From IMG/VR virus record IMGVR_UViG_3300042564_001445: a stretch of 64,000 bases of DNA. One strand, given 5' to 3'. The stretch comes from an uncultured virus (IMG/VR IMGVR_UViG_3300042564_001445) (lineage: Duplodnaviria; Heunggongvirae; Uroviricota; Caudoviricetes). Position numbers and translations under genes: made by a program. Below, in pieces: positions 3,910 through 55,090 of this stretch. Numbering within the stretch: position 1 is the first letter of the stretch; each line of letters starts with the position of its first letter. The notes below the pieces were generated by a model. It saw only the letters and a program-made list of their open reading frames with translations, searched no databases and was not told the DNA's origin.

Positions 3910-3926
3910 TATAATGGGGTTTTTAA

Positions 3927-30262: not shown

Positions 30263-32548
30263 TTATTTTTTCTGATCGGATTTTTTAATCTGAGCTATAT
30301 ATTCACGGCTTGCCGCTTCAATTTGACTCATATTAATTTTACCTTCTACTTTCATTTGTTCAATTTGCGCTTCAAGTTGTAATTTTGTTGTAATTAGCTG
30401 AGCATCAAGCTCTTTCTCTAACTGAATTGCTTGCATCTTAGCTTGCGACTCCATCTGAATTGTTTGCTGCTTAGCTTGCTCGGCAACCATTGCTGATTGT
30501 TGTTGTACTTGAGCATTCATCTGCTGCTGCATCATTGATCTCTTATCAGCCTCTTCAAGATTCTTCTTGATTTTGTGGCCCAAAAGAACTTCAGCATACT
30601 TAACATTGTCAACGTTCTCAATCATCATAGCGTCGGCTAAGGTGATCTGATTAGATTGAATTGCTAAGTCAATACGTCTTGCAAGTTTTTCTCTTTCAAA
30701 TTCATTAGGTTTTTGAGTAACAACCAATCCACATTCGTAAGCCGATACATTTGGATCTAACTTAAAGAAGTTTACTGAGTTGCTTCCAAGTGCGCGAGTA
30801 AACCCTTCGATCTTTCCGTTAATCGCAGCATCCTGAATACGAAGAGTCAAGTTGTAAGATAAACGCTCGATCAAGTTTCTTTGCGCACGTTTGATATAGT
30901 CTAATGAGTTGTTTGTTGACTCAGAGGCTAATTTAGCTACTCCATTCAACATACGAGGATCTGGTGTAGACCCATCAGTTACTTCGTTGAATCCTAGAAT
31001 CTCACGAAGCATCTGTATATTTTGATTAATGATATTAAAGTATTGAGTTGCCTCATTACCAATACCATTGTCTAATTCTTCAATTGGTTTGTAATTACTT
31101 GCTTGTCCTGCATCATCTAGACGGCGGTAAACCAAGTTACCAGTCTGATTGTACAAGTCGATAATATCCATTGGCTTAAGTGCCTTTCCGCCTCGCCCTA
31201 AAGGTACGTTTTCTAAAGCGCCAAGCTCAATCATAATACCTCTTGGACGTGCGCGCAACATAACGTTTTGCAACTTGTACCAAGCTAATTGAATTTGATC
31301 TGCAATAGGTTTCATCTGCTCACCAATAGAGTATGTGCTCATTTGGTAAACGTTAGGGGCAACAATATGGTAGCTTAACTTAGTATCTGTCAAAGAGGAC
31401 TTCGCGCGCTTCATATTTGTTTGCAATTTGCAATCAAAGAATATATCGCTGTCAACAACCCATTTGCCTTGATAAACTACTTTGTAATCAGTTTTAGAAT
31501 ATTCTTTGCCCGTACGGTTAGATTTCATTTTGCCGGCACGCCCTACGACTTTGTTGCCTTTCGAGTTAACTCTCTCTTCGAGAATCATGCTATTGATCGA
31601 ATAGAACTCTAAATCTAATACACGGATACGGAACCCATCAACATTTCTATTCTGATTAGAATTGTCCATCTTAACGGAAGCGGGGTTGCTTAATTTTGTC
31701 GTGTACTTTTCGGCAATCATTTCGTACTGCGCTTGAGAGATTTCTCCGCCGGCGATTTCTTTTAAATCAGCAATCGTCATCTCTAATACCTCCCCAACAT
31801 ATTGAACATCATCAAATGTAGGTGAGTTAGAATAAGACGAGACTAAGTTATTAACATTTACTCTACGAATCTTAATGTTGCCATTTGCGTCAAAGTATTC
31901 CTTAAATCCGGCAATACCATGATCATGCAAATCTTCAATAGTAAGAGCAGCTTCTTGTTCAAATTGATTAACATTCATAATCAACTTTAAAGCCTGCTCC
32001 ATCTCGACAGCCATTCTATGCTTATAGGAATATTCCATGTACATATCAAGCTCTTTAAGTGTTTCCACTTCAACTTCCGGTTGTGGAACCATTTCTGGAT
32101 CCAATCCTTGCTTTGCAAGTTCTTCGCGAACAATTAATCTTGCCGCGTTTTCTTTGTAAAAAGATGCTTTGTCATCTTGCGCTAAAGGATCAATAGCGTC
32201 AATAGATATATTATAATCAGCCTTTGCTAACGTAGCAATAGCTATACGTCTAAACTTAGGGATAATCGGTAAGATGTCCCAAGATATGTTAGCCCAAGAA
32301 GAGTCTGCGTTAGCTGTATCTCTTGGATGTAATAACTTACGATATGGCGTTACAGATTGCTTGCCAAGCATATAAAGCTTAACCTCATGGTAATTATCAC
32401 GCCCGTTGTATAATTGATTAGGATAGTACTTATTGTAATCTTGCCAAGCAGACTTTATATACTGGGAAATCCAAGCTTTGTTTTTTAGCGAGTTGTCAAT
32501 AGTGTGGCTAGGAAAGCCGTGAAGCAAATCTACATTGTTAGTATCCAT
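30263..32548 (-). CDS. Portal protein
   Basis: 761 aa after terL; NISWDILPIIPKF, GFNEVTDGSTPD motifs; Gln-rich C-terminal coiled coil (barrel). Confidence 0.88.
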   Translation of the reverse strand: MDTNNVDLLHGFPSHTIDNSLKNKAWISQYIKSAWQDYNKYYPNQLYNGRDNYHEVKLYMLGKQSVTPYRKLLHPRDTANADSSWANISWDILPIIPKFRRIAIATLAKADYNISIDAIDPLAQDDKASFYKENAARLIVREELAKQGLDPEMVPQPEVEVETLKELDMYMEYSYKHRMAVEMEQALKLIMNVNQFEQEAALTIEDLHDHGIAGFKEYFDANGNIKIRRVNVNNLVSSYSNSPTFDDVQYVGEVLEMTIADLKEIAGGEISQAQYEMIAEKYTTKLSNPASVKMDNSNQNRNVDGFRIRVLDLEFYSINSMILEERVNSKGNKVVGRAGKMKSNRTGKEYSKTDYKVVYQGKWVVDSDIFFDCKLQTNMKRAKSSLTDTKLSYHIVAPNVYQMSTYSIGEQMKPIADQIQLAWYKLQNVMLRARPRGIMIELGALENVPLGRGGKALKPMDIIDLYNQTGNLVYRRLDDAGQASNYKPIEELDNGIGNEATQYFNIINQNIQMLREILGFNEVTDGSTPDPRMLNGVAKLASESTNNSLDYIKRAQRNLIERLSYNLTLRIQDAAINGKIEGFTRALGSNSVNFFKLDPNVSAYECGLVVTQKPNEFEREKLARRIDLAIQSNQITLADAMMIENVDNVKYAEVLLGHKIKKNLEEADKRSMMQQQMNAQVQQQSAMVAEQAKQQTIQMESQAKMQAIQLEKELDAQLITTKLQLEAQIEQMKVEGKINMSQIEAASREYIAQIKKSDQKK

Positions 32549-32551
32549 ATC

Positions 32552-34561
32552 TTAAAAAGGAAATACGTCTCGTATTTCATATAAGTTTGTTTTTTGTTCG
32601 ACTTTCTGTGCAAACTTTGAATTACTTGCTGCTATCAAAGTGTAACCACTTGCCATCGCCGCATCAAATTTAGTGGTTTTATTTATATCAAACAGCAACC
32701 AGTCCTGTAAAAGATTTTTAAAAATTACTTTATGTATGTTTTCCTCTATATAAGTCTCTGTTTGCTCAGCTATTTGTTGGTGTGTTTTTGTCGTCGCAGA
32801 GATCCCATACTTGGTTGCTCCCGGCATTCTACTTAAAAATCTATCGTATCCGCGATACTCAAAATATTTAATTAATCCAACCTTGTTATCCTCAGATAAT
32901 ATTTCGCATCCAAAGAAATGCACAAGCTTAATCATATCCTCATAGAATATCTCCGCTTTGTCCGGGCGATTAATATATTCTACTAAGAATGTTTCACTCA
33001 TCGGATCCATCGCATCATACCTTCTATACACATATGCCGCCCCGTCAGAACGTTCTTTAGAAGAAGTAATGCTATGATCAAATGGATCGACAGCTATTGC
33101 GTATTTTTTATTAGCATCTGGTATTTTTTTAGTTCCATAATCTTTGACTTGATTATAAAAACCAGTATCATGCACGTTACATTTTGCATGAACTAAAAAC
33201 TTACCGTTAGACGTCTCTTTGAAAACTACTTTGCTGTCGCGTTCTCCATTCTCCCAAACGAATTCACCGCGCAAATATAACTCTTTTTGATCAATCCAAG
33301 TAATGGTTTCCATTTGCTTGTTAATTTTCATCGCATCATACAAACAAGTCTCACCCTCAGAGAAGAATGCTTCTTCAATAGTGAAAGGGTTCTTGCGTAT
33401 ATAAGAAGCTAATGCGCGCGGATCATCTTCCAACGCAGAACGCTCTGCTAAATAAAACTCCTTCGCTTTATCCTCATCGGGATAACCATACTTATCATAG
33501 AAAAGCGTTTTATACGCCGGAGTAAAGTACTGATACAAACCAGTTTTTGTACGTCCGTTAGCATTTTTTTTCTTCTGATCTGACGCAAGCCATAACTCTT
33601 TAAAGTGCTCCCCACCATTTTCCATTTCTTCAACGGTTGTTGTGTAGAGCGCTTTACCAATAATGTTTTCTTCCTGTTGTAAACAGAACTGTACGACTTG
33701 ATGTCTTTCATATACGTTAACGTTAATCGTTTTACCAACCTCATCACCTACATATCGGTGCAACTTTAATCCGTCATAAGAGAATTTATCAGAGCCCCTG
33801 AAACCAATAGAACTCTCTAGCTCTATCTTGTTTTCAAATATGTCATCTATAGCACCCCTCTTATTAGTTTTAAAAAAACGCAATTCTGACTTGGGGGTGA
33901 GTCCCTTTTCCGTATCGTAAATCGGAACAAAAAAATCGGGTAGGTACTTAAATGGCATAATGACTCCCTTGGCAAATACGTTATCCTTCGCATCAGACTC
34001 TGTCTTCGATTGGATACCCGCATTCTTATTCTTGCTTCTAGAAGGTAAGTCGTACAAGAAACATCCCGCCCGCATTGTCTTTCCTTGGCGACGCTTAGTC
34101 ACTTCAACCATTCCTAGGCAGCTAGGATCCTGAACAACATATTCTAGGAAATAAAAGAAATCCCTGTCAGTTGCTCTAAACTCAGGATATCCAACATCTA
34201 GCTTCCAATGAGTTAAATAAAAATAATGAAGTCCGGTGATGTACACCCCACTATTGTTATTCATAAACCAGAATCCATTAAGACGCCTGTCCCATTCTTG
34301 ATTCCTGTAAGCTTGCAACTCAGGATTATAATATTCGGGATTTGTTTTTTGCGCCGCAATTTCTTTCTTGCGCTTTGTTTCATAATCCGGCGGCGGAGTA
34401 GGACGCTCCCAATAGCAATACGCTGGCTTAGCACTACGCTTAGCAATCTCTCTATTCTCCCATTGATTAGTCATTACATTCCACACCACACCATTTGGCG
34501 GCAGGTTAACTGTAATATTATTAATCTCTATCTCCCTATTTCTTTTATGCTTTCTGTACAT
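32552..34561 (-). CDS. terL: Terminase large subunit
   Basis: YITGLHYFYL, KRRQGKT (Walker A), YVGDEVGK (Walker B), AVDPFD nuclease Asp, KFDAAMASG. Confidence 0.93.
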   Translation of the reverse strand: MYRKHKRNREIEINNITVNLPPNGVVWNVMTNQWENREIAKRSAKPAYCYWERPTPPPDYETKRKKEIAAQKTNPEYYNPELQAYRNQEWDRRLNGFWFMNNNSGVYITGLHYFYLTHWKLDVGYPEFRATDRDFFYFLEYVVQDPSCLGMVEVTKRRQGKTMRAGCFLYDLPSRSKNKNAGIQSKTESDAKDNVFAKGVIMPFKYLPDFFVPIYDTEKGLTPKSELRFFKTNKRGAIDDIFENKIELESSIGFRGSDKFSYDGLKLHRYVGDEVGKTINVNVYERHQVVQFCLQQEENIIGKALYTTTVEEMENGGEHFKELWLASDQKKKNANGRTKTGLYQYFTPAYKTLFYDKYGYPDEDKAKEFYLAERSALEDDPRALASYIRKNPFTIEEAFFSEGETCLYDAMKINKQMETITWIDQKELYLRGEFVWENGERDSKVVFKETSNGKFLVHAKCNVHDTGFYNQVKDYGTKKIPDANKKYAIAVDPFDHSITSSKERSDGAAYVYRRYDAMDPMSETFLVEYINRPDKAEIFYEDMIKLVHFFGCEILSEDNKVGLIKYFEYRGYDRFLSRMPGATKYGISATTKTHQQIAEQTETYIEENIHKVIFKNLLQDWLLFDINKTTKFDAAMASGYTLIAASNSKFAQKVEQKTNLYEIRDVFPF

Positions 34562-34564
34562 AAC

Positions 34565-35125
34565 CTATATATTAGCAATTGTTTCAGGGGTGAAGTTTAT
34601 AATCTTCTCCTTCTCCTGTTTGTTGTCCCCAAATAACTTCTCCTCGTACGCGTCAATTCTTTTAATGATTGCGTCACATTCATTCATCAACTTACTTTTC
34701 ATATCTAAAGCCTGCAACTTATCCTTATCATTCTTGTAATTAACAATAGGAGTTAACAACTCTTGCTGATATTGCCATAACACTTCCTCGTTAGCGGCTA
34801 ATACTGCCCACACCTTGGACGATTGATACTTGAGATAAGCATTGATATACCCCAAGACTTTTTCGTGGCTTAGATCAAAGATTAATTCAATGTTGTCTTT
34901 TAACTCAGCCATCTCAGCACACTCCTCCTTACGCATCGCTACATCAGGAATCTTTAGTCGCATCGGACTCTTTACATCATATAACAAAGCAACATACTTT
35001 ATAATCGGTATGTCACTAATAGTAATTGCCCCAAAGATATGTTTCACAGTAGGATGCTTATGAAGATCCTTCTCTCTAATGGGTAATGCTAAGTTATCAA
35101 ACTCGCTATCTGAAAATATTGCCAT
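34565..35125 (-). CDS. Putative terminase small subunit
   Basis: Helical protein immediately upstream of terL; likely start MAIFSD at 35125. Confidence 0.55.
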   Translation of the reverse strand: MAIFSDSEFDNLALPIREKDLHKHPTVKHIFGAITISDIPIIKYVALLYDVKSPMRLKIPDVAMRKEECAEMAELKDNIELIFDLSHEKVLGYINAYLKYQSSKVWAVLAANEEVLWQYQQELLTPIVNYKNDKDKLQALDMKSKLMNECDAIIKRIDAYEEKLFGDNKQEKEKIINFTPETIANI

Positions 35126-35300
35126 AGTATTAATTGTTTGGCGGGAAGTGGCGCGCGGCGTCCTACCCATTTTTTTCTTTTTTGGCTACTAGCAGAAACT
35201 TCGTTTCTACTTTTTTACACGTTGAAATTTTTTTTGAAAAAAAGTTGCAATATATTTTTTTATATTAACTCTTATTATATATTTAATTATATGTGACAGG

Positions 35301-35455
35301 AATCTGACGGAGGGGGGTCACAAATCTGACAGAGGGGGGTCATAAATCTGACGGAGGGGGGTGGGTCACAAACGTAGCATACCCCTCCCCCACAAATCTG
35401 ACGGAGGGGGGTCACAAATATAGCATACCCCCGCTATGAATCTGACGGAGGGGGT
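35301..35455 (+). repeat. Iteron-like array, 5 x AATCTGAC(G/A)GAGGGGG, next to an AT-rich tract (35221-35292)
   Basis: Copies start at 35301, 35323, 35345, 35395 and 35439 (spacings 22, 22, 50, 44); interleaved CACAAA.(A/G)TAGCATACCCC x2. Confidence 0.9.
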
Positions 35456-36099
35456 ACCTCTGACTTGCCCAATATATCCTCTTGTCTTACCGTATAATAA
35501 TCGATTCCTTCAATATTATTCACAAAATTAGAATTCTTAGCAAGGATAACTTTGTCGCCAGATTTTACCCCAAGTTCATCCATCCCAACAAATGGTTTTC
35601 CAATATGGGCTAACACAGCTTCTTTTGTCGAAGGAATTTTGTTCAATTTAGTTACAATTCCCGACGCACTAATAACCGCATCAATTGAATGACCCCCAAC
35701 ATCAACTTTGTTAAATTTGTCTTCAATAATCTTTTCACATAAAGTCCAGCCACCAACAGGTAAAATAAAGCCGTCCCTAATAGTACAAAAAATCCAACAA
35801 TAAGGAACTCGATAATAATTCCCATAAATGCAATTGCTCTCATCTGAAGTCGTTAAATAATGAAAGTAAACTAAGTCTCCAATACGAACTTCTTCGTGGA
35901 TCTGGTTGCCATTAAAGTCGTATATATTTCCCGCAGGTATTGCCACCACTCTGCCGTATATCCTAGCGTGATGGGTGGGGTTGAATTCGGGATCAATGTG
36001 AAGAGTCATTCCGTTAAAAGTAACTGTATCCTCGAGGGACTTACCTACCTCTACAATGACTGTATTAGGCGCTGCCTGACTGATGTCGTAACTAAGCAT
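35434..36099 (-). CDS. Tandem GroES (Cpn10)-like co-chaperonin
   Basis: Two GroES-like units: P.TVIVE...GRVVAIP...VRIGDLVYF and P.GG..L....SGIV...GVKSGDKVI...IEGIDYY.VRQEDILG. Confidence 0.75.
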   Translation of the reverse strand: MLSYDISQAAPNTVIVEVGKSLEDTVTFNGMTLHIDPEFNPTHHARIYGRVVAIPAGNIYDFNGNQIHEEVRIGDLVYFHYLTTSDESNCIYGNYYRVPYCWIFCTIRDGFILPVGGWTLCEKIIEDKFNKVDVGGHSIDAVISASGIVTKLNKIPSTKEAVLAHIGKPFVGMDELGVKSGDKVILAKNSNFVNNIEGIDYYTVRQEDILGKSEVPPPSDS

Positions 36100-36605
36100 A
36101 TTTAATTGTTGTCTGGTTTGTTAACATAAAGTTATACTAAAAATACCCAATTAACAAAAAAATGTTGCGTGCGGTTGTGTAAAGAAGGTTATAGATTTTC
36201 TGCCGGCCCCGGAAAACCAAACAGCGAAACGCAAATTTCAAACCGGGTAGTCTTCCCTTTTCAAAACCAAATTCCAAAAATCAAGCCGGCTAAATAGATA
36301 CGTTTAAACATAATTTTCTAAAAAAGTTAAGGGATCTATAAACATATATTTTTTCCGGCACCATATCCCAAAAAAGAAAATCCGTTTTCACTTTTCATGC
36401 AGGAAAATAATACCGGAAGCGGACGACGTCGCGTTAACGATTCTCCGGCACAATTATAAACCATTCCTAAAAATATTCAAAAAAGTAAAACCCTATTTAA
36501 ATAACATAGGCAAAGATTCAATAAAAAAAACTTACCGTTTAATAATTTTCTTTATCAAATCTCTTGCATAATATAAACTAATTGTTTTACTTCGCTTCTG
36601 TATTT

Positions 36606-36924
36606 AATCAATCAAATAAACTCAATCAAATCAATTATGGAAAATTTATTTAGTACAGCCGAAAAATTAATGCATAAGTTAAACACGAATAAAATAAACA
36701 TTTATACAACTAGCATTGATATAGAAAAAAATGAAATAACTCTTTACGGGTATTTTAGTTTCGATTTATCATGCCAATTATTCCAAGAAAAATTTGAATT
36801 GCTAGAAATTGGATATTATGGCTGTAATGTAAACCTGGCAAAGTACAGAAAAGGTAATATAAAAATTCAAGCGAAACATTAATAAAATCAATCAATCAAA
36901 TAAAACTCAATCAAATCAATCATG
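36606..36924 (+). repeat. Direct-repeat leaders AATCAATCAAATAAA(A)CTCAATCAAATCAAT flanking the first early gene
   Basis: Near-identical ~30-bp copies at ~36607-36635 and ~36891-36920, each just before an ATG. Confidence 0.85.
36637..36882 (+). CDS. Hypothetical early protein
   Basis: 81-aa AT-rich ORF, first of the plus-strand arm. Confidence 0.65.
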   Translation: MENLFSTAEKLMHKLNTNKINIYTTSIDIEKNEITLYGYFSFDLSCQLFQEKFELLEIGYYGCNVNLAKYRKGNIKIQAKH

Positions 36925-37662
36925 AAAACAATTCAAGCACCAAACGGACAAATTTTAGAAATAGCAAAAACGCTATTAAGCAAAGGAGACTCAAACGCCA
37001 AACTAGCTAAAAACTTTCTAGAGTCTTACATTTTGTATTTAAATCCATTTAATCAAAACAGCCTAGGCAAAAATTTGTGTCCTAAGGCATCCATTGAATG
37101 TACTAAATTATGCTTGTATACTTCCGGACGCGGAGTAATGGCACCCGTCCAAGCCGGACGCACGCGCCGGACTGAATTTTACCTACAGGATAGAAACGGA
37201 TTTTTGAATATGTTAATGAATGAACTTGCACGCCTAGACAAAAAAGCGAAGCGCCAAAATTCCAAGATAGCTGTACGTTTAAATGGTACGTCGGATTTGG
37301 ATTTTATTGCCATACTAAAAAACCGGTTTAACGTCGACGTTTTGGAAGCGTTTACAAGTCTTGAATTTTACGACTACACGAAGATTTTAGGCAAAGTAAA
37401 AAAGTACGCCGGCACCCGTTACAAATTGACGTTTTCACGTTCAGAGGATAACGAAGCGGATTGCATAGAAGCGCTTAAATATGGCCCGATATCTGTAGTT
37501 TTTGACGAATCAAAACCATTCCCGGAAACATACCTAGGCGCGCCGGTAATTAATGGAGACGAAGCCGACGACATTATGCTAACATTGGAAGCCGGCAAAA
37601 TCCTAGGCTTAAAAGCAAAAGGTAAAGCGAAGAAAAGCGCCAGCAAATTTGTAGTAAAATAA
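36922..37662 (+). CDS. GP88-like protein (radical-SAM-related fold)
   Basis: NLCPKAS..C...CL..SGRG, AVRLNGTSD, FYDYTK, Y.LTFS.SE, VINGD..D, GLKAKGKA. Confidence 0.8.
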   Translation: MKTIQAPNGQILEIAKTLLSKGDSNAKLAKNFLESYILYLNPFNQNSLGKNLCPKASIECTKLCLYTSGRGVMAPVQAGRTRRTEFYLQDRNGFLNMLMNELARLDKKAKRQNSKIAVRLNGTSDLDFIAILKNRFNVDVLEAFTSLEFYDYTKILGKVKKYAGTRYKLTFSRSEDNEADCIEALKYGPISVVFDESKPFPETYLGAPVINGDEADDIMLTLEAGKILGLKAKGKAKKSASKFVVK

Positions 37663-37707
37663 TTTAATCAAGCCGGGTGAAATTCCCGGCGCTAAACTTT
37701 ACATAAA

Positions 37708-38010
37708 ATGGAAAATTTACAGCAATTAAAAGACGAATTAAACGCGTACAAATTACGCGAAGAAAAACTAAAAGTATTAATAGGTGAGCTAGTAGAAAAT
37801 ACAGATTTCGGGAACTATTGGTATGAAGACGAAGACGAAGCGTGGAAGATAGGCGACGTGTACTACAATCGTTCTGTATTGGCGCAACTTGATATAGACG
37901 AAGCCGGCGAAGATGTATCCGACGAATTAAGCGCGCCAACAGACGTACTTTTTACCCTACAGGAATACATCGCACCAATTTTAAACGAACTAAACTACCT
38001 AGTAAAATGA
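37708..38010 (+). CDS. Hypothetical early protein (acidic)
   Basis: 100-aa ORF. Confidence 0.7.
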   Translation: MENLQQLKDELNAYKLREEKLKVLIGELVENTDFGNYWYEDEDEAWKIGDVYYNRSVLAQLDIDEAGEDVSDELSAPTDVLFTLQEYIAPILNELNYLVK

Positions 38011-38264
38011 TACATAAAAGCATTACGACGCGCGGATATCTTAACAAATATAAGACGTTCACAAAATCATTCGAAGACGAAAGGCATTTTTCGAATTGGT
38101 ATAAGAAGGTAACAGCCGGCGACGCATACGGCACGAAGATAATAGGCGTCGAAGACTTGGAGATTATGACGGACGAAGACTATCGTACGGAATTAGTCGC
38201 CAAAGGATGGAGCGAAGCGGATATATTACAAGCAATAGAACGCAAACGCGAAGACGGATTTTAA
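38007..38264 (+). CDS. Hypothetical early protein
   Basis: 85-aa ORF. Confidence 0.65.
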   Translation: MIHKSITTRGYLNKYKTFTKSFEDERHFSNWYKKVTAGDAYGTKIIGVEDLEIMTDEDYRTELVAKGWSEADILQAIERKREDGF

Positions 38265-38309
38265 AACAAACTGCCATAACGGCGCTAACTTTTTTAAATA
38301 ATCAATCAA

Positions 38310-38702
38310 ATGGAAATCTCAATTAAAAAAACAATCAAGAAACAAATTTTAGAAAACGTAATAATCGGCGCCCTTGAAGGCGGGTCAAATTACTGGTATT
38401 GCATTGGAGACATAGACAAAACAAACTTCCGTAAAGGAATTTCAATGGCGGAAAACATAGCCGAACAGCTGTACACGAATACAGAATTTAAGCTACCTAT
38501 TTACGACATAGAAAGCGCTGAAGATCCGGATGAAATGGACTTCCTAGGAGACGTCACAAACGCATCAGTCGTAAAGGCGTTCGAGTTAATGGCGGACAAA
38601 TACCCTGAATTTTTGGAGCGTATACTAGACGAATCCGGAGACGCGGACGACGACGACGTATTTTTCCAACTGGCTACCATGGGCGAAGTTATCTACGGGT
38701 AA
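38310..38702 (+). CDS. Conserved phage early protein
   Basis: ALEGGSNYW...DADDDDVFFQ....GEVIYG, a recurring phage family of unknown function. Confidence 0.75.
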   Translation: MEISIKKTIKKQILENVIIGALEGGSNYWYCIGDIDKTNFRKGISMAENIAEQLYTNTEFKLPIYDIESAEDPDEMDFLGDVTNASVVKAFELMADKYPEFLERILDESGDADDDDVFFQLATMGEVIYG

Positions 38703-38720
38703 TTTCGTCTACAAATTCGG

Positions 38721-38739
38721 GCGATTCGTCGCACTTTTT
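38721..38739 (+). terminator. Short UUCG-loop hairpin plus U-tract
   Basis: GCGA-TTCG-TCGC followed by ACTTTTT. Confidence 0.45.
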
Positions 38740-38761
38740 CAATCGCATAAACTTAAAGTAT

Positions 38762-38769
38762 TACATTTG
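38762..38769 (+). promoter_or_regulatory. Bacteroidota-type -7 box (TACATTTG)
   Basis: TAnnTTTG 24 bp upstream of ATG 38794. Confidence 0.65.
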
Positions 38770-38793
38770 TTTAAATCAATCAATCAAAAAAAA

Positions 38794-39150
38794 ATGGAAA
38801 ATTCACAGCAAGTTTCAGAAATTTTAAGAGCCATTCAAGGCAAATTTGACGCCATAGATTCATACTTATGCGCGTGGTTTTACAAGCTACCATTAGAAGC
38901 AATGGAAGACGTCATGGGAAATTATAATTCGCCGGAGCGCGAAGATTACACCGCCAATGAAGAAGGCGAAGATGAATACCAGTACGATTTAGCTCAATAC
39001 ATTGACTCTCTTTACAGCGATTTCGCAGAAGTCAGTTTGGATATTAAACTAAATGACTTTAGAACGTACGCCGGCAGGTATGCGGACGAAATGCAAGAGG
39101 GCTGGAGTTTTGTAGGGCAGGCAGATTTTTTAGGTGAATCAATCATATAA
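38794..39150 (+). CDS. Hypothetical early protein (acidic)
   Basis: Start MENSQQ at 38794 after an A-rich leader. Confidence 0.7.
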   Translation: MENSQQVSEILRAIQGKFDAIDSYLCAWFYKLPLEAMEDVMGNYNSPEREDYTANEEGEDEYQYDLAQYIDSLYSDFAEVSLDIKLNDFRTYAGRYADEMQEGWSFVGQADFLGESII

Positions 39151-39161
39151 ATTATATTATC

Positions 39162-39311
39162 ATGGCAAAGCAAGAAAAAATTATCGAAATGATCGAATTG
39201 CAAATCGAAAGATTGCGAGCAAAGTTAGAAGAAAGAAAGATGACTCCAGAAGATTTTACAGAAGAGTCAATGTTAATTAACGGGATTGAAAGCCTATTAA
39301 GATTATTGTAA
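39162..39311 (+). CDS. Hypothetical protein (49 aa, not in ORF track)
   Basis: MAKQEKIIEMIELQIERL...; fills a gap, TAATG coupling to the next gene. Confidence 0.6.
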   Translation: MAKQEKIIEMIELQIERLRAKLEERKMTPEDFTEESMLINGIESLLRLL

Positions 39312-39541
39312 TGACTGGACTAGACTACCTAAACAATTATCTAAGCGACGTGGAGCAGGATCGATTCATTAACAACGTTATCGAATTTAATCCGGACGGA
39401 TTTTTATCTGATACGTTAGATTCTACTCATGGTTCCCTGTTGGAATTTCTAGGCTACGCATTCTGTTGGCGAGACACACCGGAGGGACATGATTTTTGGG
39501 AAGAAATTGCAACATCAAATTTAAAAACCAAGCAATTATAA
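39311..39541 (+). CDS. Hypothetical early protein
   Basis: AF.W..TPEGHDFW motif. Confidence 0.7.
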   Translation: MTGLDYLNNYLSDVEQDRFINNVIEFNPDGFLSDTLDSTHGSLLEFLGYAFCWRDTPEGHDFWEEIATSNLKTKQL

Positions 39542-39542
39542 A

Positions 39543-39746
39543 ATGAATACAAGACAGAAAATACTAAACGCAATTAAGGAATGTTCGTTATCGCCCATTG
39601 ATTACGAACAGATGGAAGCCTACGCTACCATGGAAGAATGGGAATTACGCGACGAATTGATAGGTGAAATCTATGCTTTGCGCGACGCACTTGACGAATT
39701 AAATGGTATCGAACAATTAAAAATTAAATCAAATGATCAAATTTAA
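39543..39746 (+). CDS. Hypothetical protein
   Basis: 67-aa ORF in operon. Confidence 0.6.
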   Translation: MNTRQKILNAIKECSLSPIDYEQMEAYATMEEWELRDELIGEIYALRDALDELNGIEQLKIKSNDQI

Positions 39747-40008
39747 TGTAGTAATAAATCCCTTTTCGAATAAGATTTTAGTGTCGGCAAGGGTTAACAA
39801 GATGTCTTGTGAGGAGATATTGCAATGGAACGGAGACGGCGACTGGTGGCATTCATTTGAAATGAACGGAAGCTTATTTGATTTCAATTTATCTTATGAT
39901 GAAGAGCTATCAGTAACTATTTATCCCGCCCCGCCGGAAGGAGAGAACTCTCTTTACATTGAACATTATAAAACAACATTTAAAGTTATCCATAAAGATG
40001 AGTTTTAA
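39733..40008 (+). CDS. Hypothetical protein
   Basis: 91-aa ORF in operon. Confidence 0.6.
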   Translation: MIKFNVVINPFSNKILVSARVNKMSCEEILQWNGDGDWWHSFEMNGSLFDFNLSYDEELSVTIYPAPPEGENSLYIEHYKTTFKVIHKDEF

Positions 40009-40096
40009 TCAAAAACCTACCATTAGCGAGTGGATTGAATGTTTTTTTTACATAGCATTCACCGCCCTAGCATATTATCTAATCGTTATATATTAA
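39998..40096 (+). CDS. Small membrane peptide (32 aa, not in ORF track)
   Basis: MSFNQKPTISEWIECFFYIAFTALAYYLIVIY. Confidence 0.5.
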   Translation: MSFNQKPTISEWIECFFYIAFTALAYYLIVIY

Positions 40097-40107
40097 ACCA
40101 AACAAAA

Positions 40108-40293
40108 ATGAAAACATTACAAGCTATTACTGGAATTACTTCCATCGTCTGTATGATTTTAATGCAGATTGTAGACTACAACTTAAGCGAAGATTTATTC
40201 TGCTTAGTTATTATTTGTCTCCCAGTTTTCCTTTACGCGTCTCACATTGTAGGCATGGAAAACCAAGATAGAAAGGAGGCTGGCAATGAATAG
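40108..40293 (+). CDS. Small membrane protein (2 TM)
   Basis: Likely start MKTLQ at 40108. Confidence 0.6.
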   Translation: MKTLQAITGITSIVCMILMQIVDYNLSEDLFCLVIICLPVFLYASHIVGMENQDRKEAGNE

Positions 40294-40522
40294 TCGAGAA
40301 TTAAATCTAATCAAGATCGGATTATTAATCTTAGCCCTAATTTGTACCGCGTCTATACTTTTTAACATAGTCGCCAAAGAAAATTCCAAGCCGGCAAAAC
40401 ATGAGCCATTCAGGAAGTTTTCCATGACTATATCTGAAGACAAATGGGATGAGTCAACGATGCCGAAAGGAAGACGTAGTCCAAGCGGAGTATTGTATAC
40501 GCCGGAAGGTTCAAGTAAATAA
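40286..40522 (+). CDS. Small membrane-anchored protein
   Basis: N-terminal TM helix. Confidence 0.6.
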   Translation: MNSRELNLIKIGLLILALICTASILFNIVAKENSKPAKHEPFRKFSMTISEDKWDESTMPKGRRSPSGVLYTPEGSSK

Positions 40523-40579
40523 ATTTTAAACTTTTAAATATAAAAAATAAATAAATTTTAAACTTTTAAATATAAAAAA
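40516..40579 (+). repeat. Perfect 32-bp tandem duplication
   Basis: TAAATAAATTTTAAACTTTTAAATATAAAAAA x2. Confidence 0.9.
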
Positions 40580-40580
40580 A

Positions 40581-40868
40581 ATGAAAAACGGAAGAACGGT
40601 ATTAAGAACAATGGAGTCAAGAAAAAACAGAGAGGCTATCCTAATTTATAAAGTTGAAGACTTATGCTTTAACCCGGACAATCTCCGAGAGGGGCACCGC
40701 TACGAAGTTACCTATAGATTTGGGCGCTCAAGCGATACCATTATCGGAAGGTACTTTGGTTGCACCGAAGATGCTAGGACATTGATCCTCAGCAGGTTAG
40801 GTGACGATGGAATTTCGATAGGGATCCCGTCGATGAATATTTATTCTATTGACAGACTCGGATTGTAA
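40581..40868 (+). CDS. Hypothetical protein
   Basis: 95-aa ORF. Confidence 0.65.
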   Translation: MKNGRTVLRTMESRKNREAILIYKVEDLCFNPDNLREGHRYEVTYRFGRSSDTIIGRYFGCTEDARTLILSRLGDDGISIGIPSMNIYSIDRLGL

Positions 40869-40879
40869 ACAAAAAGAGT

Positions 40880-40887
40880 TATCTTTG
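40880..40887 (+). promoter_or_regulatory. Bacteroidota-type -7 box (TATCTTTG) for the replication operon
   Basis: TAnnTTTG followed by a structured ~120-nt leader. Confidence 0.65.
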
Positions 40888-40947
40888 TGAGTAATGTTAT
40901 GAGTTCTATTGAGGGATAGGATTCAAAACAATAGGCTAAAACCTATC

Positions 40948-40985
40948 GCCCAAGTGTCTTCCCTCAAGCGCTTGGGCATTTTTTT
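40948..40985 (+). terminator. Leader terminator/attenuator
   Basis: GCCCAAGTG..CGCTTGGGC stem plus A-T7. Confidence 0.75.
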
Positions 40986-41013
40986 GCACAATGAATAAGC
41001 ATTTTTTTGCACA

Positions 41014-41208
41014 ATGAATTTAGAAGAAGAAGCCCACCGGGCAATATTAAACGTGCGCAAGGTACATTTTGAGATAGACTTAGCAGACTACCAGCGCGCA
41101 ATGAAATTTGCCGAACCTGATATGGAGGCATTTGATAAGTTGTTAGTTATCATTCAAGATTTAGTGCGCAAGATCAAAAACATAGATAAAGAGTTAAGAA
41201 GCATATGA
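41014..41208 (+). CDS. Hypothetical protein
   Basis: 64 aa, overlaps the initiator start. Confidence 0.6.
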   Translation: MNLEEEAHRAILNVRKVHFEIDLADYQRAMKFAEPDMEAFDKLLVIIQDLVRKIKNIDKELRSI

Positions 41209-41900
41209 GTTGGTACGCAATTATTCCGGGAGAAGTTTTATCTAGAAAGGATATTTCCGCTAATGAGAAATTGTTAGTAGGGTTAATTGCTAGTTTGTCT
41301 CATAAAGAGGGTCATTGTTTTGCGAGTAACCAGTACATGGGTGATTGTTTAGGAGTTTCACAAAGTGCAGTACGTTCGTACCTAAGAAACCTTGAAGAGT
41401 TGGACATTGTTAGTCGCATTATTAAGAAAAAACCTAGCGGAGAGGTTGAAACAAGGGAAATTAGGGTGACTACCCCCCTGTCAGATTTGACACCCCCCTC
41501 CCCCACAAATATAGCATACCCTCCGTCAGATTCTAGACCCCCCTCCCCCACAGATCTGTCACATATAATAAGAGATAATAATAAAGGGAATAATAAACAA
41601 ATAAATATTGAGGAAAAATTTGAAAAGTTTTGGGAAGAGTACGGAAAGAAGGTAGGGAAGGAGAAGACTAGACAAAAATGGATAAAGCTAAAAGAAAACG
41701 AAAAGGACGAAGTCTTATTATCCATACCTAGATACAAAATTGCGCGTCCCGATCCAGTCTACCGGAAAGATCCCGAGAGATACCTAAGTAACCGAGTGTG
41801 GGAGGATGAGCTTCCACTATCAGCAAATGAAACCAAACAATCAACCGAACCTATCAACCAAGAGCAGTTCGAATTAACGATACCAAAGGAATGGCAGTAG
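41205..41900 (+). CDS. Replication initiator (N-terminal wHTH, Pro-rich iteron-encoded linker, C-terminal FEKFW..Y.KK.GK domain)
   Basis: YAIIP..V...KDIS..EKLL..LI.SL....G.CFASN..; FEKFWEEY; P..YL....WEDE; immediately upstream of DnaB. Confidence 0.85.
   Translation: MSWYAIIPGEVLSRKDISANEKLLVGLIASLSHKEGHCFASNQYMGDCLGVSQSAVRSYLRNLEELDIVSRIIKKKPSGEVETREIRVTTPLSDLTPPSPTNIAYPPSDSRPPSPTDLSHIIRDNNKGNNKQINIEEKFEKFWEEYGKKVGKEKTRQKWIKLKENEKDEVLLSIPRYKIARPDPVYRKDPERYLSNRVWEDELPLSANETKQSTEPINQEQFELTIPKEWQ
41470..41630 (+). other. Putative replication origin within the initiator gene (iterons plus AT-rich tract)
   Basis: GTCAGATT and CCCCCTCCCCCACA repeats followed by A-rich DNA, as in lambda O-type genes. 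Confidence 0.7.
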
Positions 41901-43327
41901 AAAGAATAAAAAATGGAGTTATTGATTATCTACTAGAAGAAGATATCATATCTTACTTACTAGAGAATTCGCATACGGTTCCGGAGGCATCTAAGATTAT
42001 CACACCATCAGCCTTTACTGATAGTCTGTTGTCTGCATCATATTCAGCCTGTGTTGAATTATCTATTGACGGCAAGGTATTCAATCGTTATGATGTATTT
42101 AGATTGCTTAAATCAAAAGAAAAAGACTTAGGCATTGACGCTTCAAAGATCTTAACATTACTACCTAAGCGTTCCCTAGAGATTACTAAGGTTTGTTTAG
42201 AGTTAAAAGAAGTTGAGAATAAGCGAATCATATCTGATATATCACTACGGATTCAACAAGGAATCTTAGATGATGAGTCTTCATCTCAGTTGGCTTCCGT
42301 AATCGAAGGAGGTTTAGGACAGATTTCTACCGGCGCGAGCGCTACTGAGATAATGAACATTTCAGATATCTACGATAGGGTAGTTGATAAGATGACTGCT
42401 TCCGCCGGCGTACTAAAATTCTCCGGAATTGAGACTGGTAGCCGGAAGTTAAATTACGCCTTAGGTGGCTGGCAAGAGGGAATGATCGTCATTGCGGCCC
42501 GCCCCGGGATGGGTAAAACTATCGTCGGATTGGAGCACGCAAAGGAGGCCGCCAAGGCAAAAGCACGCGTGTTGTTTCTATCTTTGGAAATGCCTACTGA
42601 TTCATTAATGTACCGCTACATTTCGTCTGAGGTTATCGAATATAACTATTCAGATTTAAAGGCTAATCGCATCACACAGGAAGACGTAGCAAAGATCGTT
42701 AAGTCTAACGCTAAGTTGCTTAAGCAATTGCCTATCTATTTTTACGATTCAGATAACCGGGACATCAACTACCTGTCAATGGTGCTTACGTCGGAAGTTC
42801 GCAAAAACAAAATAGATATTGTGGTAATTGATTATATGCAATTGATTAGAGACAATCAGATTAAAGATCAATCAGACTTCGCGCAGGTATCTTCGGTGAG
42901 TAATAAGATTCAGAAGTTAACCAAGAAGTTGCACATCCCAATCATTTGCTTATCGCAGTTATCGCGAGACATTGAGAAGAGAACGAATCGTCAGCCCCAG
43001 CTGGCAGACTTACGCTCAAGCGGTAACATTGAGCAGGATGCTATTGTCGTAATAGGTTTATATCGCGATGACTATTACAAGTATACTGATGCGAAGACTA
43101 ATGGCCAAGCGATCCCTCCAATGGACAATACGTTAAAGTATTGCATCCTTAAGAACAGAGACGGAGAAGTTGGTGACGTAGGCAGATTCGTAGACGTAAA
43201 GACTAATCGTGTGGCGGATTCTGAGGACGAATTGTTCCGCTTTGAAACGCCTGAGTTAGTATATCAGTCTAGTAAAATAGACACAATCAAACATAATTTT
43301 GACAACGTAACAATCCAACCATTCTAA
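41891..43327 (+). CDS. dnaB: Replicative DNA helicase DnaB
   Basis: AARPGMGKT, SLEM, VVIDYMQL, LSQLSR, DLRSSGNIEQDA, KNRDG. Confidence 0.95.
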   Translation: MAVERIKNGVIDYLLEEDIISYLLENSHTVPEASKIITPSAFTDSLLSASYSACVELSIDGKVFNRYDVFRLLKSKEKDLGIDASKILTLLPKRSLEITKVCLELKEVENKRIISDISLRIQQGILDDESSSQLASVIEGGLGQISTGASATEIMNISDIYDRVVDKMTASAGVLKFSGIETGSRKLNYALGGWQEGMIVIAARPGMGKTIVGLEHAKEAAKAKARVLFLSLEMPTDSLMYRYISSEVIEYNYSDLKANRITQEDVAKIVKSNAKLLKQLPIYFYDSDNRDINYLSMVLTSEVRKNKIDIVVIDYMQLIRDNQIKDQSDFAQVSSVSNKIQKLTKKLHIPIICLSQLSRDIEKRTNRQPQLADLRSSGNIEQDAIVVIGLYRDDYYKYTDAKTNGQAIPPMDNTLKYCILKNRDGEVGDVGRFVDVKTNRVADSEDELFRFETPELVYQSSKIDTIKHNFDNVTIQPF

Positions 43328-43863
43328 TGAGAACAATATTAAAAGAGCACAAATTAAATTGCAAGTGGTGTAACCATCACATTGGATTAGAGAATGTATC
43401 TGAGAAAATGAAAGATCGCGGAGGCAAGAAGACTAATATACGATGCCCACAATGCAATATGTCTTCAATGATTAATCAAACTAAGCTAGGGTATTTTTCG
43501 GTATATCGCTCTGATGGCGCCAGATTTGATCGCAACGTTCAAGCTAAGGTTAATCGTAAGGTATTTGATCCTACTACGAAATCTTTTAAAAAGAAAAGAG
43601 AGAGAACTAATCGTAAGTCGGCGATGCAATTGCTACTTGACTACCTAGATGAGCGACGTGGGCTACGAATTGAGCCACGCACATTACTTGCTAAGGTAAA
43701 TGAACTGCAACGATTAGAGAAGGTTCAGTTTATAGAAGTATTTGAATTATCAAAAATAAAAACAACAAATGCTTACGAAAATAATCCGGAAGATTTCTAT
43801 AAAACTTATTTCGGAGGCAACAGAGGTGGCATCAAAAAGATCCAATACGATGAATGTATTTAA
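43327..43863 (+). CDS. Zinc-ribbon protein
   Basis: CKWC...CPQC. Confidence 0.6.
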   Translation: MRTILKEHKLNCKWCNHHIGLENVSEKMKDRGGKKTNIRCPQCNMSSMINQTKLGYFSVYRSDGARFDRNVQAKVNRKVFDPTTKSFKKKRERTNRKSAMQLLLDYLDERRGLRIEPRTLLAKVNELQRLEKVQFIEVFELSKIKTTNAYENNPEDFYKTYFGGNRGGIKKIQYDECI

Positions 43864-44629
43864 AGAGTTATCTAAATTCAAGAAGGTTAAGTATCACGAC
43901 GAGCCTCATAAGTATTTTATAGGCGAGCAGGAATTGATCTCCGGAACGGCATTTATCGGCAAATTTAAGGAGAAGTTTGACTCTAAGGCTATGGCAGAGA
44001 AGACTGCTAAGAAGAAGGGACTCTCTACCGAAGAAGTTCTGGCGGACTGGGATTACCGAGGTGATATCTCCCGGACAAAGGGTACGCTACTACATAACTT
44101 TGCAGAAAATTATTGGCAAAACAAAATATTCCCTATTGATTATTCTCAGTACGACGAAAGATTTGGCGCAGGGGTAATGGAAGAAAGATTAGAGGCTTGC
44201 AAGAAGATGTTTATAGACTTCTATACAGACTCTAGTAACACGTTAGTCCCTGTTGCAATGGAATTAGTTGTCGGCGACGAAGATCTTGGCATAGGAGGTA
44301 TGGTGGACTGCTTGTTCTGGAATCAGAAGCATGGAGAGTTGCAGATCTGGGATTATAAGACTAACAAAGAGATTGCCGAGTTCAGCAAGTATAAGAAGAA
44401 GATGCTGATGCCGATTAATTTCCTACAGGAATGCGAATTAAACGCATATAGTATTCAGTTGAATTTATACAAGTATATCATTGAAAGGAATACAAATTTG
44501 AAGATCGGGCAATGCTACCTAGTTCACATTCACGAAGATCAAGAGCAGTATAATGTGATCCAATGCAAGGAATATCAAGACATAATCGAATTACTAATAA
44601 AACATCATAAGTCCACTATCAACAATTAG
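43850..44629 (+). CDS. PD-(D/E)XK exonuclease (Cas4/RecB-like)
   Basis: KGTLLH..AE, E..V.D, GG.VDCL, IWDYKTN, YSIQL.LY; start MNVFK at 43850. Confidence 0.85.
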   Translation: MNVFKELSKFKKVKYHDEPHKYFIGEQELISGTAFIGKFKEKFDSKAMAEKTAKKKGLSTEEVLADWDYRGDISRTKGTLLHNFAENYWQNKIFPIDYSQYDERFGAGVMEERLEACKKMFIDFYTDSSNTLVPVAMELVVGDEDLGIGGMVDCLFWNQKHGELQIWDYKTNKEIAEFSKYKKKMLMPINFLQECELNAYSIQLNLYKYIIERNTNLKIGQCYLVHIHEDQEQYNVIQCKEYQDIIELLIKHHKSTINN

Positions 44630-49633: not shown

Positions 49634-49801
49634 ATGAGAAAAACACGCTACAACGACGTTATCTGCAAGGCAGAGGAACTCGTAAACAACCCATTAAACA
49701 GAACACGCTCCGGCAGATTACGTTCTAGAGTACAAAAGAAAGTAAATAGATTGGTGCTTAAGGTTACATATCTTACCCAATTTGAAGAAACAATTTTTTA
49801 A
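49634..49801 (+). CDS. Small basic protein (55 aa, not in ORF track)
   Basis: MRKTRYNDVICKAEELVNN..., first ATG after the promoter. Confidence 0.55.
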   Translation: MRKTRYNDVICKAEELVNNPLNRTRSGRLRSRVQKKVNRLVLKVTYLTQFEETIF

Positions 49802-49826
49802 CAATTTCAACCAAACAATTATTATT

Positions 49827-50528
49827 ATGGCAAGAGCTGACGCGTACAAAACAACAACAGAATCTCCAGTTAAAAAGTATTTATCTTGGAGTTCAAATGA
49901 CAAGTGTTTCACTTATTGGGACAAGGCTGCTGAGAAGAATCAAAAGCTTCCATTACCAATTAAGTTAGTACACTTAGACGATATGTCCTGCATCAAGGGC
50001 TGGCACGATTCTTCTTCTTCTGGGATCTATTCTAATGAGATCAAGAACTCAGGTGCTGAGCCTTTAGTAGTTAAGGCATTCAAGGGCGGTACAATCGCTG
50101 AGGGTCTTTACAAGGATATTAAGTTAAAGGTAAATGGCCTTGGCGGAGATTACCATGCAAGTTTATATTTCTACCTCAATGGAGAAGTTGTTAACCTTGC
50201 AATTAAAGGCGCCGCATTGATGGTTTGGAGTGACTTCGCTAAAGAAAACAGAAAGTCTTTCTTAGATAATTACATTGAGGTTACAGGAGCATTAGATGCT
50301 AAGAAAGGATCTGTAAAGTATTCAACTCCGGTGATGGCTGTTGGTGGAATCATTGACAAGTCTGTTAACGAGAATGCTGAGGACTCATACGATACATTGC
50401 AGAAATATTTTGCATCAAGAAAGGCTTCGGCTAATGTTGCTGTAGAAGAGTTAGTTGCAGAAGAGGTTCCTGCTCGCAAGTTCGAAGAGGCTCCGGTAGA
50501 AGATCCATCAGATTTACTTCCTTTCTAA
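49827..50528 (+). CDS. Putative single-stranded DNA-binding protein
   Basis: Beta-rich, acidic tail ending DLLPF; start MARAD at 49827. Confidence 0.65.
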   Translation: MARADAYKTTTESPVKKYLSWSSNDKCFTYWDKAAEKNQKLPLPIKLVHLDDMSCIKGWHDSSSSGIYSNEIKNSGAEPLVVKAFKGGTIAEGLYKDIKLKVNGLGGDYHASLYFYLNGEVVNLAIKGAALMVWSDFAKENRKSFLDNYIEVTGALDAKKGSVKYSTPVMAVGGIIDKSVNENAEDSYDTLQKYFASRKASANVAVEELVAEEVPARKFEEAPVEDPSDLLPF

Positions 50529-51712: not shown

Positions 51713-52102
51713 ATGGTAATTGATGAGATTGTATTTGAGTGGGAGGGTATAGATGTTAGTCTCAATAAGTTTTTTGCCGGCAAACATTGGACGATTAGAA
51801 ACAAAATTAAAGATCAATTTCATTTATTATTTGGCAGACTATTAACCAAGAAGTATAAGATGGTAGATAAGTACGAAGTTGTCCTAGAGTACAACTCTCG
51901 CCTAGATCCTACGAATACCATAATCTTAATCAAGATCGGAGAAGACTTTCTTCGTCATATCAATGTACTAACAGACGATACTAAAAAGTTCTGCAAGAAA
52001 GTAACCATTATTCCGGTAAGCACAATGGGTGCTAAACATTACAAAATGACATTTCAAATAATTTCATATGCTACAAAAGAAACTAAAGCTAACCGCTCCT
52101 AG
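51713..52102 (+). CDS. RusA-like Holliday junction resolvase
   Basis: SLNK.F.GKHW..R, D..N...K..ED.L....L.DD. Confidence 0.7.
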   Translation: MVIDEIVFEWEGIDVSLNKFFAGKHWTIRNKIKDQFHLLFGRLLTKKYKMVDKYEVVLEYNSRLDPTNTIILIKIGEDFLRHINVLTDDTKKFCKKVTIIPVSTMGAKHYKMTFQIISYATKETKANRS

Positions 52103-52871: not shown

Positions 52872-53342
52872 TCAACATTTATGTTTTGAAGATACTAAGT
52901 TACAAATTTCTATGAACTCTTTTTGCGTATAGACGTACTTCATAAAGTTCACCTTCTTATGAAGTAGCTGTACGTTGCGTTTAACATATCCTTTATCGTT
53001 GTTGATGCGATCAATTGATACCATCCCTTGATCAGAATCCTTATCGAAGTCTAATGGTAAGCCAGATAATGCGCACACCTTACCTTGCTTAAGATATATT
53101 TTCCAAATGTATTCAATTGTAATATCCCACTCCTTTTCACGTTGTATTGAACGCCTTTTCTTCTCTTCAAACCAGCTGATTGGTATCTCCCTGTATTTAC
53201 CTTTGTTTCCCTTACCTAACTTATTATGACAAGAGCGACAAAGAGTATTGCTCCTTGCCGCCCTGTTGCGTTCACTTTTTGTTGTGTAAGACTGGATGCC
53301 TCCACACGATTGGCAATATTTAGTGAAAGACTTTACTTGCAT
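52872..53342 (-). CDS. HNH-like endonuclease with N-terminal zinc finger
   Basis: CQSC/CRSC; CALSG...SIDRI...GY...NVQ......N.MK. Confidence 0.75.
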   Translation of the reverse strand: MQVKSFTKYCQSCGGIQSYTTKSERNRAARSNTLCRSCHNKLGKGNKGKYREIPISWFEEKKRRSIQREKEWDITIEYIWKIYLKQGKVCALSGLPLDFDKDSDQGMVSIDRINNDKGYVKRNVQLLHKKVNFMKYVYTQKEFIEICNLVSSKHKC

Positions 53343-55042: not shown

Positions 55043-55090
55043 ATTATTTTTTAATAAAAATCAACTTCAACTCATTATTATCTGCTTGCA

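Follow-up and report, generated by a model that had tools for sequence, protein, structure and literature searches.

Comparison of 26 related genomes shows that an iteron-like site in front of the packaging genes of this phage follows the predicted specificity of the replication initiator across divergent initiator classes, and does so against the genealogy of its own flanking genes. The element occupies 35221-35447 of the window (the whole 64,000-nucleotide stretch analysed, which covers all or the greater part of a phage genome of roughly 64 kb) and lies between a GroES-like gene and the gene preceding terL; it is real and slightly larger than first described. Our preferred reading, to which we give a probability of about 0.6, is that it constitutes a second initiator site with its own unwinding element, analogous to oriR of phage SPP1 and used as a late origin, as a fork barrier, or as both.

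Long open reading frames run leftward over 1-36.1 kb and 52.9-64 kb of the window and rightward over 36.6-52.6 kb. The five sequencing runs that contain at least 0.85 of the window's words are lake-water metagenomes, two of them possibly its source. The terminase large subunit (terL; 32552-34561, minus strand; phrog_6681, E 5e-82) is 24-31% identical to those of flavobacterial podophages of the Elemovirus, Pachyviridae and Pervagoviridae type, for example elemo, Calle and phi18:3, with 31% to the Flavobacterium elemo phages. This is too distant for membership, and we infer a Bacteroidota host from the resemblance. The portal gene follows terL (30263-32548, minus strand; phrog_6547, E 7e-94). 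Directly before terL, in the terS position, lies a gene for a conserved, all-helical protein of 186 aa (34565-35125, minus strand; 17-row alignment; model pLDDT 78.5), whose longest reading frame starts at 35170 and whose conserved start is at 35125. It gave no family match and no fold match at E<=0.001, its weak best rows being uncharacterised crAss-like proteins, and we name it terS by its position before terL. The first gene of the leftward arm is the GroES-like (Cpn10) gene (35434-36099, minus strand; PF00166, E 2.6e-9; phrog_13932). Its product, at 221 aa, is about twice the usual length; it occurs in 111 database clusters and always heads the packaging arm. The Flavobacterium phage elemoE likewise has a GroES-annotated gene before terL, but there the two genes abut, with no spacer between them.

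Several other features of the window were recorded along the way. Of its 96 CCGG sites, 42 fall within 36100-44100, at the start of the rightward arm, including seven in the non-coding stretch 36100-36636. Near-identical AT-rich repeats stand upstream of early genes at 36606-36643, 36890-36928 and 40513-40576 and are candidate early promoters or leaders. The regions 58521-63923 and 53342-57550 encode an 1800-aa protein with an ART-PolyVal domain and contain two paralogous genes that share a 490-bp stretch of 77% identity. The turns in GC skew, near 36-37 kb and 52 kb, coincide with changes of coding strand, so the skew is uninformative for origin position.

The initiator gene (41205-41900, plus strand) matches phrog_270 (E 3e-30) and PF13730 (E 5.5e-10), with weak PHROG matches to 'replication initiation O-like' families. 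In the predicted structure, an N-terminal winged helix and a helical C-terminal domain are joined by a linker of low confidence, which the iteron DNA encodes; a fold search gave no match at E<=0.001, and its weak best rows were plasmid initiator/DnaD N-domains (E 2e-3 to 4e-3). The gene end is overlapped by the gene for a DnaB-like replicative helicase (41891-43327, plus strand; PF03796, E 5e-65), and no separate helicase loader gene lies between them. Inside the initiator gene is an origin-like element (41479-41620, plus strand) made of four units, starting at 41479, 41503, 41524 and 41548 with a spacing of 21-24 bp, followed by an AT-rich tract. Thus dyad repeats in near-helical phase sit beside an AT-rich tract within the initiator gene, as in lambdoid iteron origins, and the dyads are clearer in relatives.

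The second array (35296-35447, minus strand) consists of seven imperfect 14-bp dyad units separated by C/G runs. Units at both sites were placed by hand, in the phase of the intragenic array; those of the second array start at 35296, 35318, 35340, 35366, 35390, 35412 and 35434, the last of these overlapping the 3' end of the GroES-like gene. The first-pass annotation had reported five copies of a word with a basic 22-bp period. Indeed, AATCTGACRGAGGGG has five exact copies (starts 35301, 35323, 35345, 35395 and 35439) and occurs nowhere else in the window. The period holds for four of the six steps (22, 22, 26, 24, 22 and 22), the other two being 26 and 24 bp, and the units number seven, not five. 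All are imperfect 5-4-5 dyads: the unit at 41479 is the only fully symmetric one at either site, and the others pair at 0-3 of five positions. An AT-rich tract, a candidate DNA unwinding element, adjoins the last unit (35221-35295, minus strand). Its AT content is 0.887 over 35221-35291, and that of the intragenic tract is 0.831 over 41562-41620, as compared to 0.624 window-wide; their best 50-nt stretches rank in the top 0.08% and top 0.35% of the window, respectively, although an AT-rich tract is expected in any spacer that bears a promoter. Relative to the units, the A-rich strand is the same at the two sites.

The two elements face opposite ways. In a self-comparison with blastn, 35250-35363 aligned with 41606-41491 (74% over 117 columns, E 5.9e-10), the longest inverted repeat within the window. 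The claim that both arrays end in a common 14-mer followed by an AT tract, in opposite orientations, was borne out: CTGTCACATATAAT has exactly two sites in the window, at 41556 on the plus strand and at 35286-35299 on the minus strand. The description of the arrays as mirror images applies to their overall polarity, units and then AT tract, and not to each unit. The companion words lie on the plus strand at both sites (35413/41504 and 35382/41495), because single units occur in either orientation. Similarly, the reverse complement of the repeat, said to occur inside the initiator gene, is present there as CTCCGTCAGATT, but as a single copy (41521) and not as a repeat.

The strongest evidence comes from relatives. 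An alignment of the GroES-like protein led to 37 viral and 69 metagenome loci, of which 81 carried a near-full GroES-like gene at >=50% identity. Both initiator and spacer were in reach in 41, which dereplication at 90% reduced to 26; L102 was dropped for its short spacer and 39 had no initiator in reach. In all 26 genomes the spacer shares 10-mers with the genome's own initiator gene, covering 31-142 nt, and this cover has a median of 64.5 nt for own genes versus 0 for off-diagonal pairs (permutation p<=1e-5, 26 genomes). The own initiator gene ranked top by 10-mer cover in 19 of the 26 genomes (18 strictly) and by local alignment score in 17 (15 strictly). The seven cover misses went to genomes with a similar word, and two of the alignment misses, L088 and L113, to the non-sister genome L108. 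Besides the main HTH_36 group, the match extends to two divergent HTH_36 groups (29-37% identity) and to a Lin1244_N group whose initiators are 16-18% identical to the one studied here. In the nearest relative (L001/L002; initiator 87% identical) the terminal 14-mer carries the same one-base change at both sites.

The array match is not plain linkage, since array distance follows the intragenic repeats more than the flanking genes: it correlates with intragenic-repeat distance at r 0.80, versus 0.50 for groES, 0.35 for the terS-position gene and 0.45 for terL. With the distances of these three genes removed, a partial Mantel r of 0.73 remained (Spearman 0.60; p 1e-4), and the automatic window for the intragenic repeats, which seems misplaced for L092, L110 and L130, lowers rather than raises the Mantel correlation. 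L092 and L098, for example, are sisters by terL (support 100/100) and by groES (99, on a quick version of that tree), yet their words differ at both sites. The divergent HTH group requires three changes on the terL tree, from which L085 is absent (partial gene), but the starred branches force only one, and for this reason we do not claim repeated switches of initiator class. The initiator gene of L092 (2428-3123) is a mosaic: its N-terminus resembles those of L091 and L098, and its middle part and repeat word resemble those of L130, which suggests that specificity in that initiator class maps after about residue 85.

The AT tract varies along with the units. It best matches a tract of its own initiator class in 25 of the 26 genomes; these classes were set by visual inspection, and for L091 and L098 the automatic boundary fell in the wrong place. 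The five complete genomes of one subgroup each contain exactly two clusters of the motif, one on either strand, and a reversed-pattern control gave 0. The sites are 6.1-9.9 kb apart in 20 measured loci. The second array has more units than the intragenic one in 13 of 17 genomes and as many in the other four, a rough count that the wider search window biases upward. All 26 genomes have thus retained a second array whose motif changes together with the repeats inside the initiator gene, the reverse of the outcome set beforehand as grounds for giving up the idea. This co-variation of units and tract supports, at the level of sequence, an origin-type module recognised by the initiator.

Outside the clade the layout was not recovered. 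When viral contigs were scanned for exact matches to the repeat pattern of this genome, 0 loci were returned: the repeat words are lineage-specific. Among 32 initiator loci, a second cluster within 10 kb was found in five, every one a contig of this clade; L014, the sixth from the clade, did not reach the cut-off, and the other 26 loci, which have partial flanks, had none. Whole records G001-G003 gave one match each, and G004-G005 a weak 22-nt hit only, with no array. No array precedes the terS-position gene in five distant loci (L169, L173, L178, L181 and L184). In L184 the initiator gene itself (3686-4435, with three 23-bp repeats) lies between the GroES-like and terS-position genes on the same strand, along with a primase-helicase-like reading frame, a possible ancestral position seen in one long-branch record. 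The search returned no cultured close relative.

The closest experimental parallel is SPP1. In SPP1, oriL lies within gene 38 and oriR between genes, and both combine repeats with an AT-rich element (PMC6316719, PMC3485210, PMC5737612); gp38 binds both, and a roadblock role of oriR in the switch from theta replication to concatemers is put forward as an unproven proposal (PMC6316719, PMC3485210). The SPP1 record has words common to both sites in the same orientation, some 13 kb from each other, and the second comes after the terminase and portal genes. Like SPP1, the present phage has one element of repeats and AT-rich DNA within its initiator gene, ahead of the gene for a DnaB-family helicase, and another in a gap between genes close to the packaging genes; both elements are co-directional with local transcription, and genes for an exonuclease and a Holliday-junction resolvase are present. 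However, its sites are inverted, whereas those of SPP1 have the same orientation, and its second site precedes the packaging operon instead of following the terminase and portal genes. G38P shows no BLASTP similarity to the initiator (E 2.6, a comparison of sequences), and the loader gene found between initiator and helicase in SPP1 has no counterpart in that place here. The pair thus resembles that of SPP1 by layout, and we do not class the two as the same system; because the orientation differs, the collision geometry of SPP1 is not transferable. A two-site layout as such is already known. SPP1 oriR was the only experimentally mapped second site returned by the literature searched, which held no paper on the origins of this clade; subscription journals lay mostly outside its coverage.

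Other systems offer partial likenesses. The lambda origin also has dyad-type repeats inside the initiator gene beside an AT-rich region; it needs transcription, and O dimers bind inverted-repeat iterons (PMC5043065). The phage studied here resembles it in the intragenic element. To our knowledge lambda has one such element, without a second copy. P1 incA, F incC and phage P4 crr are extra initiator-binding repeats located away from the origin. P4 relies on its primase-helicase alpha protein, and incA and incC are not known to include an unwinding tract, in contrast to the present site, where the tract is kept and co-varies with the initiator.

This last difference bears on what we regard as a possible, if rather doubtful, alternative, namely that the second array does not fire and serves as a control site. 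It would titrate or handcuff the initiator, as is known from plasmids in the incA/incC style, or act as an operator or roadblock that ties packaging-gene expression to DNA copy number by acting on transcription that continues past the GroES-like gene into the terS-position, terL and portal genes. Such a site needs only the observed co-variation, and the array does stand in the transcription path into the packaging operon, often with more units than the intragenic array. However, a control site leaves the polarity of the AT tract, the junction with the last unit and the initiator-class-specific words unexplained, and a sigma-70 scan, which omits Bacteroidota promoters, found six sites versus 6.5 expected, none of them promoter-like in the spacer; the same scan found no terminator. 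A separate and unlikely alternative places the function at packaging: an initiator complex would mark, open or replicate anew the DNA next to the packaging start or to a terminal repeat, for example duplicating a terminal redundancy or delivering DNA to terminase. The spacer ahead of the terS-position gene contains, no more than about 130 nt from the AT tract, a perfect palindrome with a 6-bp stem and a 3-nt loop (35194-35208), located beyond the AT tract, and an A-tract followed by a GC-rich box (35138-35183, minus strand), which comes before the likely start at 35125 and was seen by eye in 26 spacers. Position-matched palindromes with differing stems occur in 17 of the 26 relatives, versus 4.2 expected from shuffles. 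The A-tract and GC box might be a packaging or terminase-binding site, and the whole of 35138-35208 is a candidate packaging site or single-strand priming signal. In addition, contig depth over roughly 35.5-38 kb is about 1.4-1.7x higher than on the terL side in four of four runs. This excess, also visible in single contigs, is weak and comes from contigs only, two of the runs possibly being the source of the window; it could mark terminal redundancy or strain sharing. Short terminal repeats have been predicted for Gundel (PMC8776804), a phage of a family matched by this terL at about 29%. Against a packaging role, depth measured on contigs does not equal copy number, the AT tract points in the direction opposite to the deeper stretch, and the terS identity of the 34565-35125 gene is taken from its position.

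The inverted arrays might instead be a by-product of, or a substrate for, recombination, with no initiator role or with a fork flip into double rolling-circle amplification, which we hold to be improbable. Exact runs of 32-39 nt are shared between the sites in L094, L106 and L114, and in L041 (the same as L126) positions 4657-5055 join groES and the array to the 3' half of the initiator gene and dnaB, forming either an inversion-type junction or an assembly crossover. That junction, however, occurs in one record as compared to 84 (redundant) rows with the normal one; it coincides with about 21 nt of shared sequence, at which an assembler may jump between the sites, and no reciprocal junction turned up. 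Moreover, unit number, order and orientation differ between the two sites in most genomes, the initiator gene would be cut in two by an inversion, and a neutral copy would not keep the same place in each of the 26 genomes. The contigs of four runs showed no joint with a switch of strand between the arrays; since contigs drop rare variants, this is compatible with a rare inversion. Finally, it had been suggested that the G runs could form a G-quadruplex, which as the functional element is highly improbable. Runs of 5-7 G do separate units in this genome, and a pattern with loops of <=20 nt occurs in 12 of the 26 second arrays, including that of this window. With loops of <=12 nt the pattern falls to four of 26 and with loops of <=7 nt to three, this window being in neither set, and the element persists in the Lin1244_N and divergent HTH_36 groups even though they lack such G runs.

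We therefore return to a second initiator site with an unwinding element. Dimers of the initiator would bind both arrays, and the intragenic copy would fire early, aided by early rightward transcription. The second copy stands where the leftward late arm begins and has at least as many units; it would be occupied later, and the fact that its AT tract is kept favours an ability to melt. It may then act as a late origin, sending a fork co-directionally with transcription through the leftward arm of roughly 47 kb. Alternatively, it may stall an incoming fork, so that the PD-(D/E)XK exonuclease (43769-44629, plus strand; phrog_298, PF12705) and the RusA-like Holliday-junction resolvase (51713-52102, plus strand; phrog_4632, E 1.4e-8), both candidate fork-restart functions, would convert theta replication into packaging concatemers. 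No annealing recombinase was named among the reading frames scanned, one of which (49782-50528) has no named function. The late-origin and fork-barrier uses are not mutually exclusive. Activation of the second copy by late read-through is suggested by the need of lambda-type origins for transcription and by the place of the element at the head of the leftward arm. We favour use of the two copies at different times because simultaneous unidirectional forks running outward would leave a 6-kb gap uncopied. Thus, of the earlier proposal of a duplicated or split origin, the second initiator-type module gains support from co-variation, and a simple split origin firing at once is unlikely.

A bolder form of this reading, which we put forward tentatively and think rather unlikely to hold in full, is that the clade carries an inverted pair of origins switched by transcription, in which the late one is rewritten from the intragenic one by recombination and is hence self-updating. 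The early origin would lie inside the initiator gene, and the late origin would be turned on by late read-through, sending a fork that copies the long late arm along transcription from a start beside the packaging site. Recombination between the inverted arrays would rewrite the late origin whenever initiator specificity changes, with L041 as a trapped intermediate.

More broadly, the clade provides comparative evidence that the second site is under selection to match the initiator and keeps a matched unwinding tract. Its members form a natural panel of initiator-iteron pairs that may serve as ready controls for specificity swaps, and their inverted geometry would separate a late origin from a rear-end roadblock.
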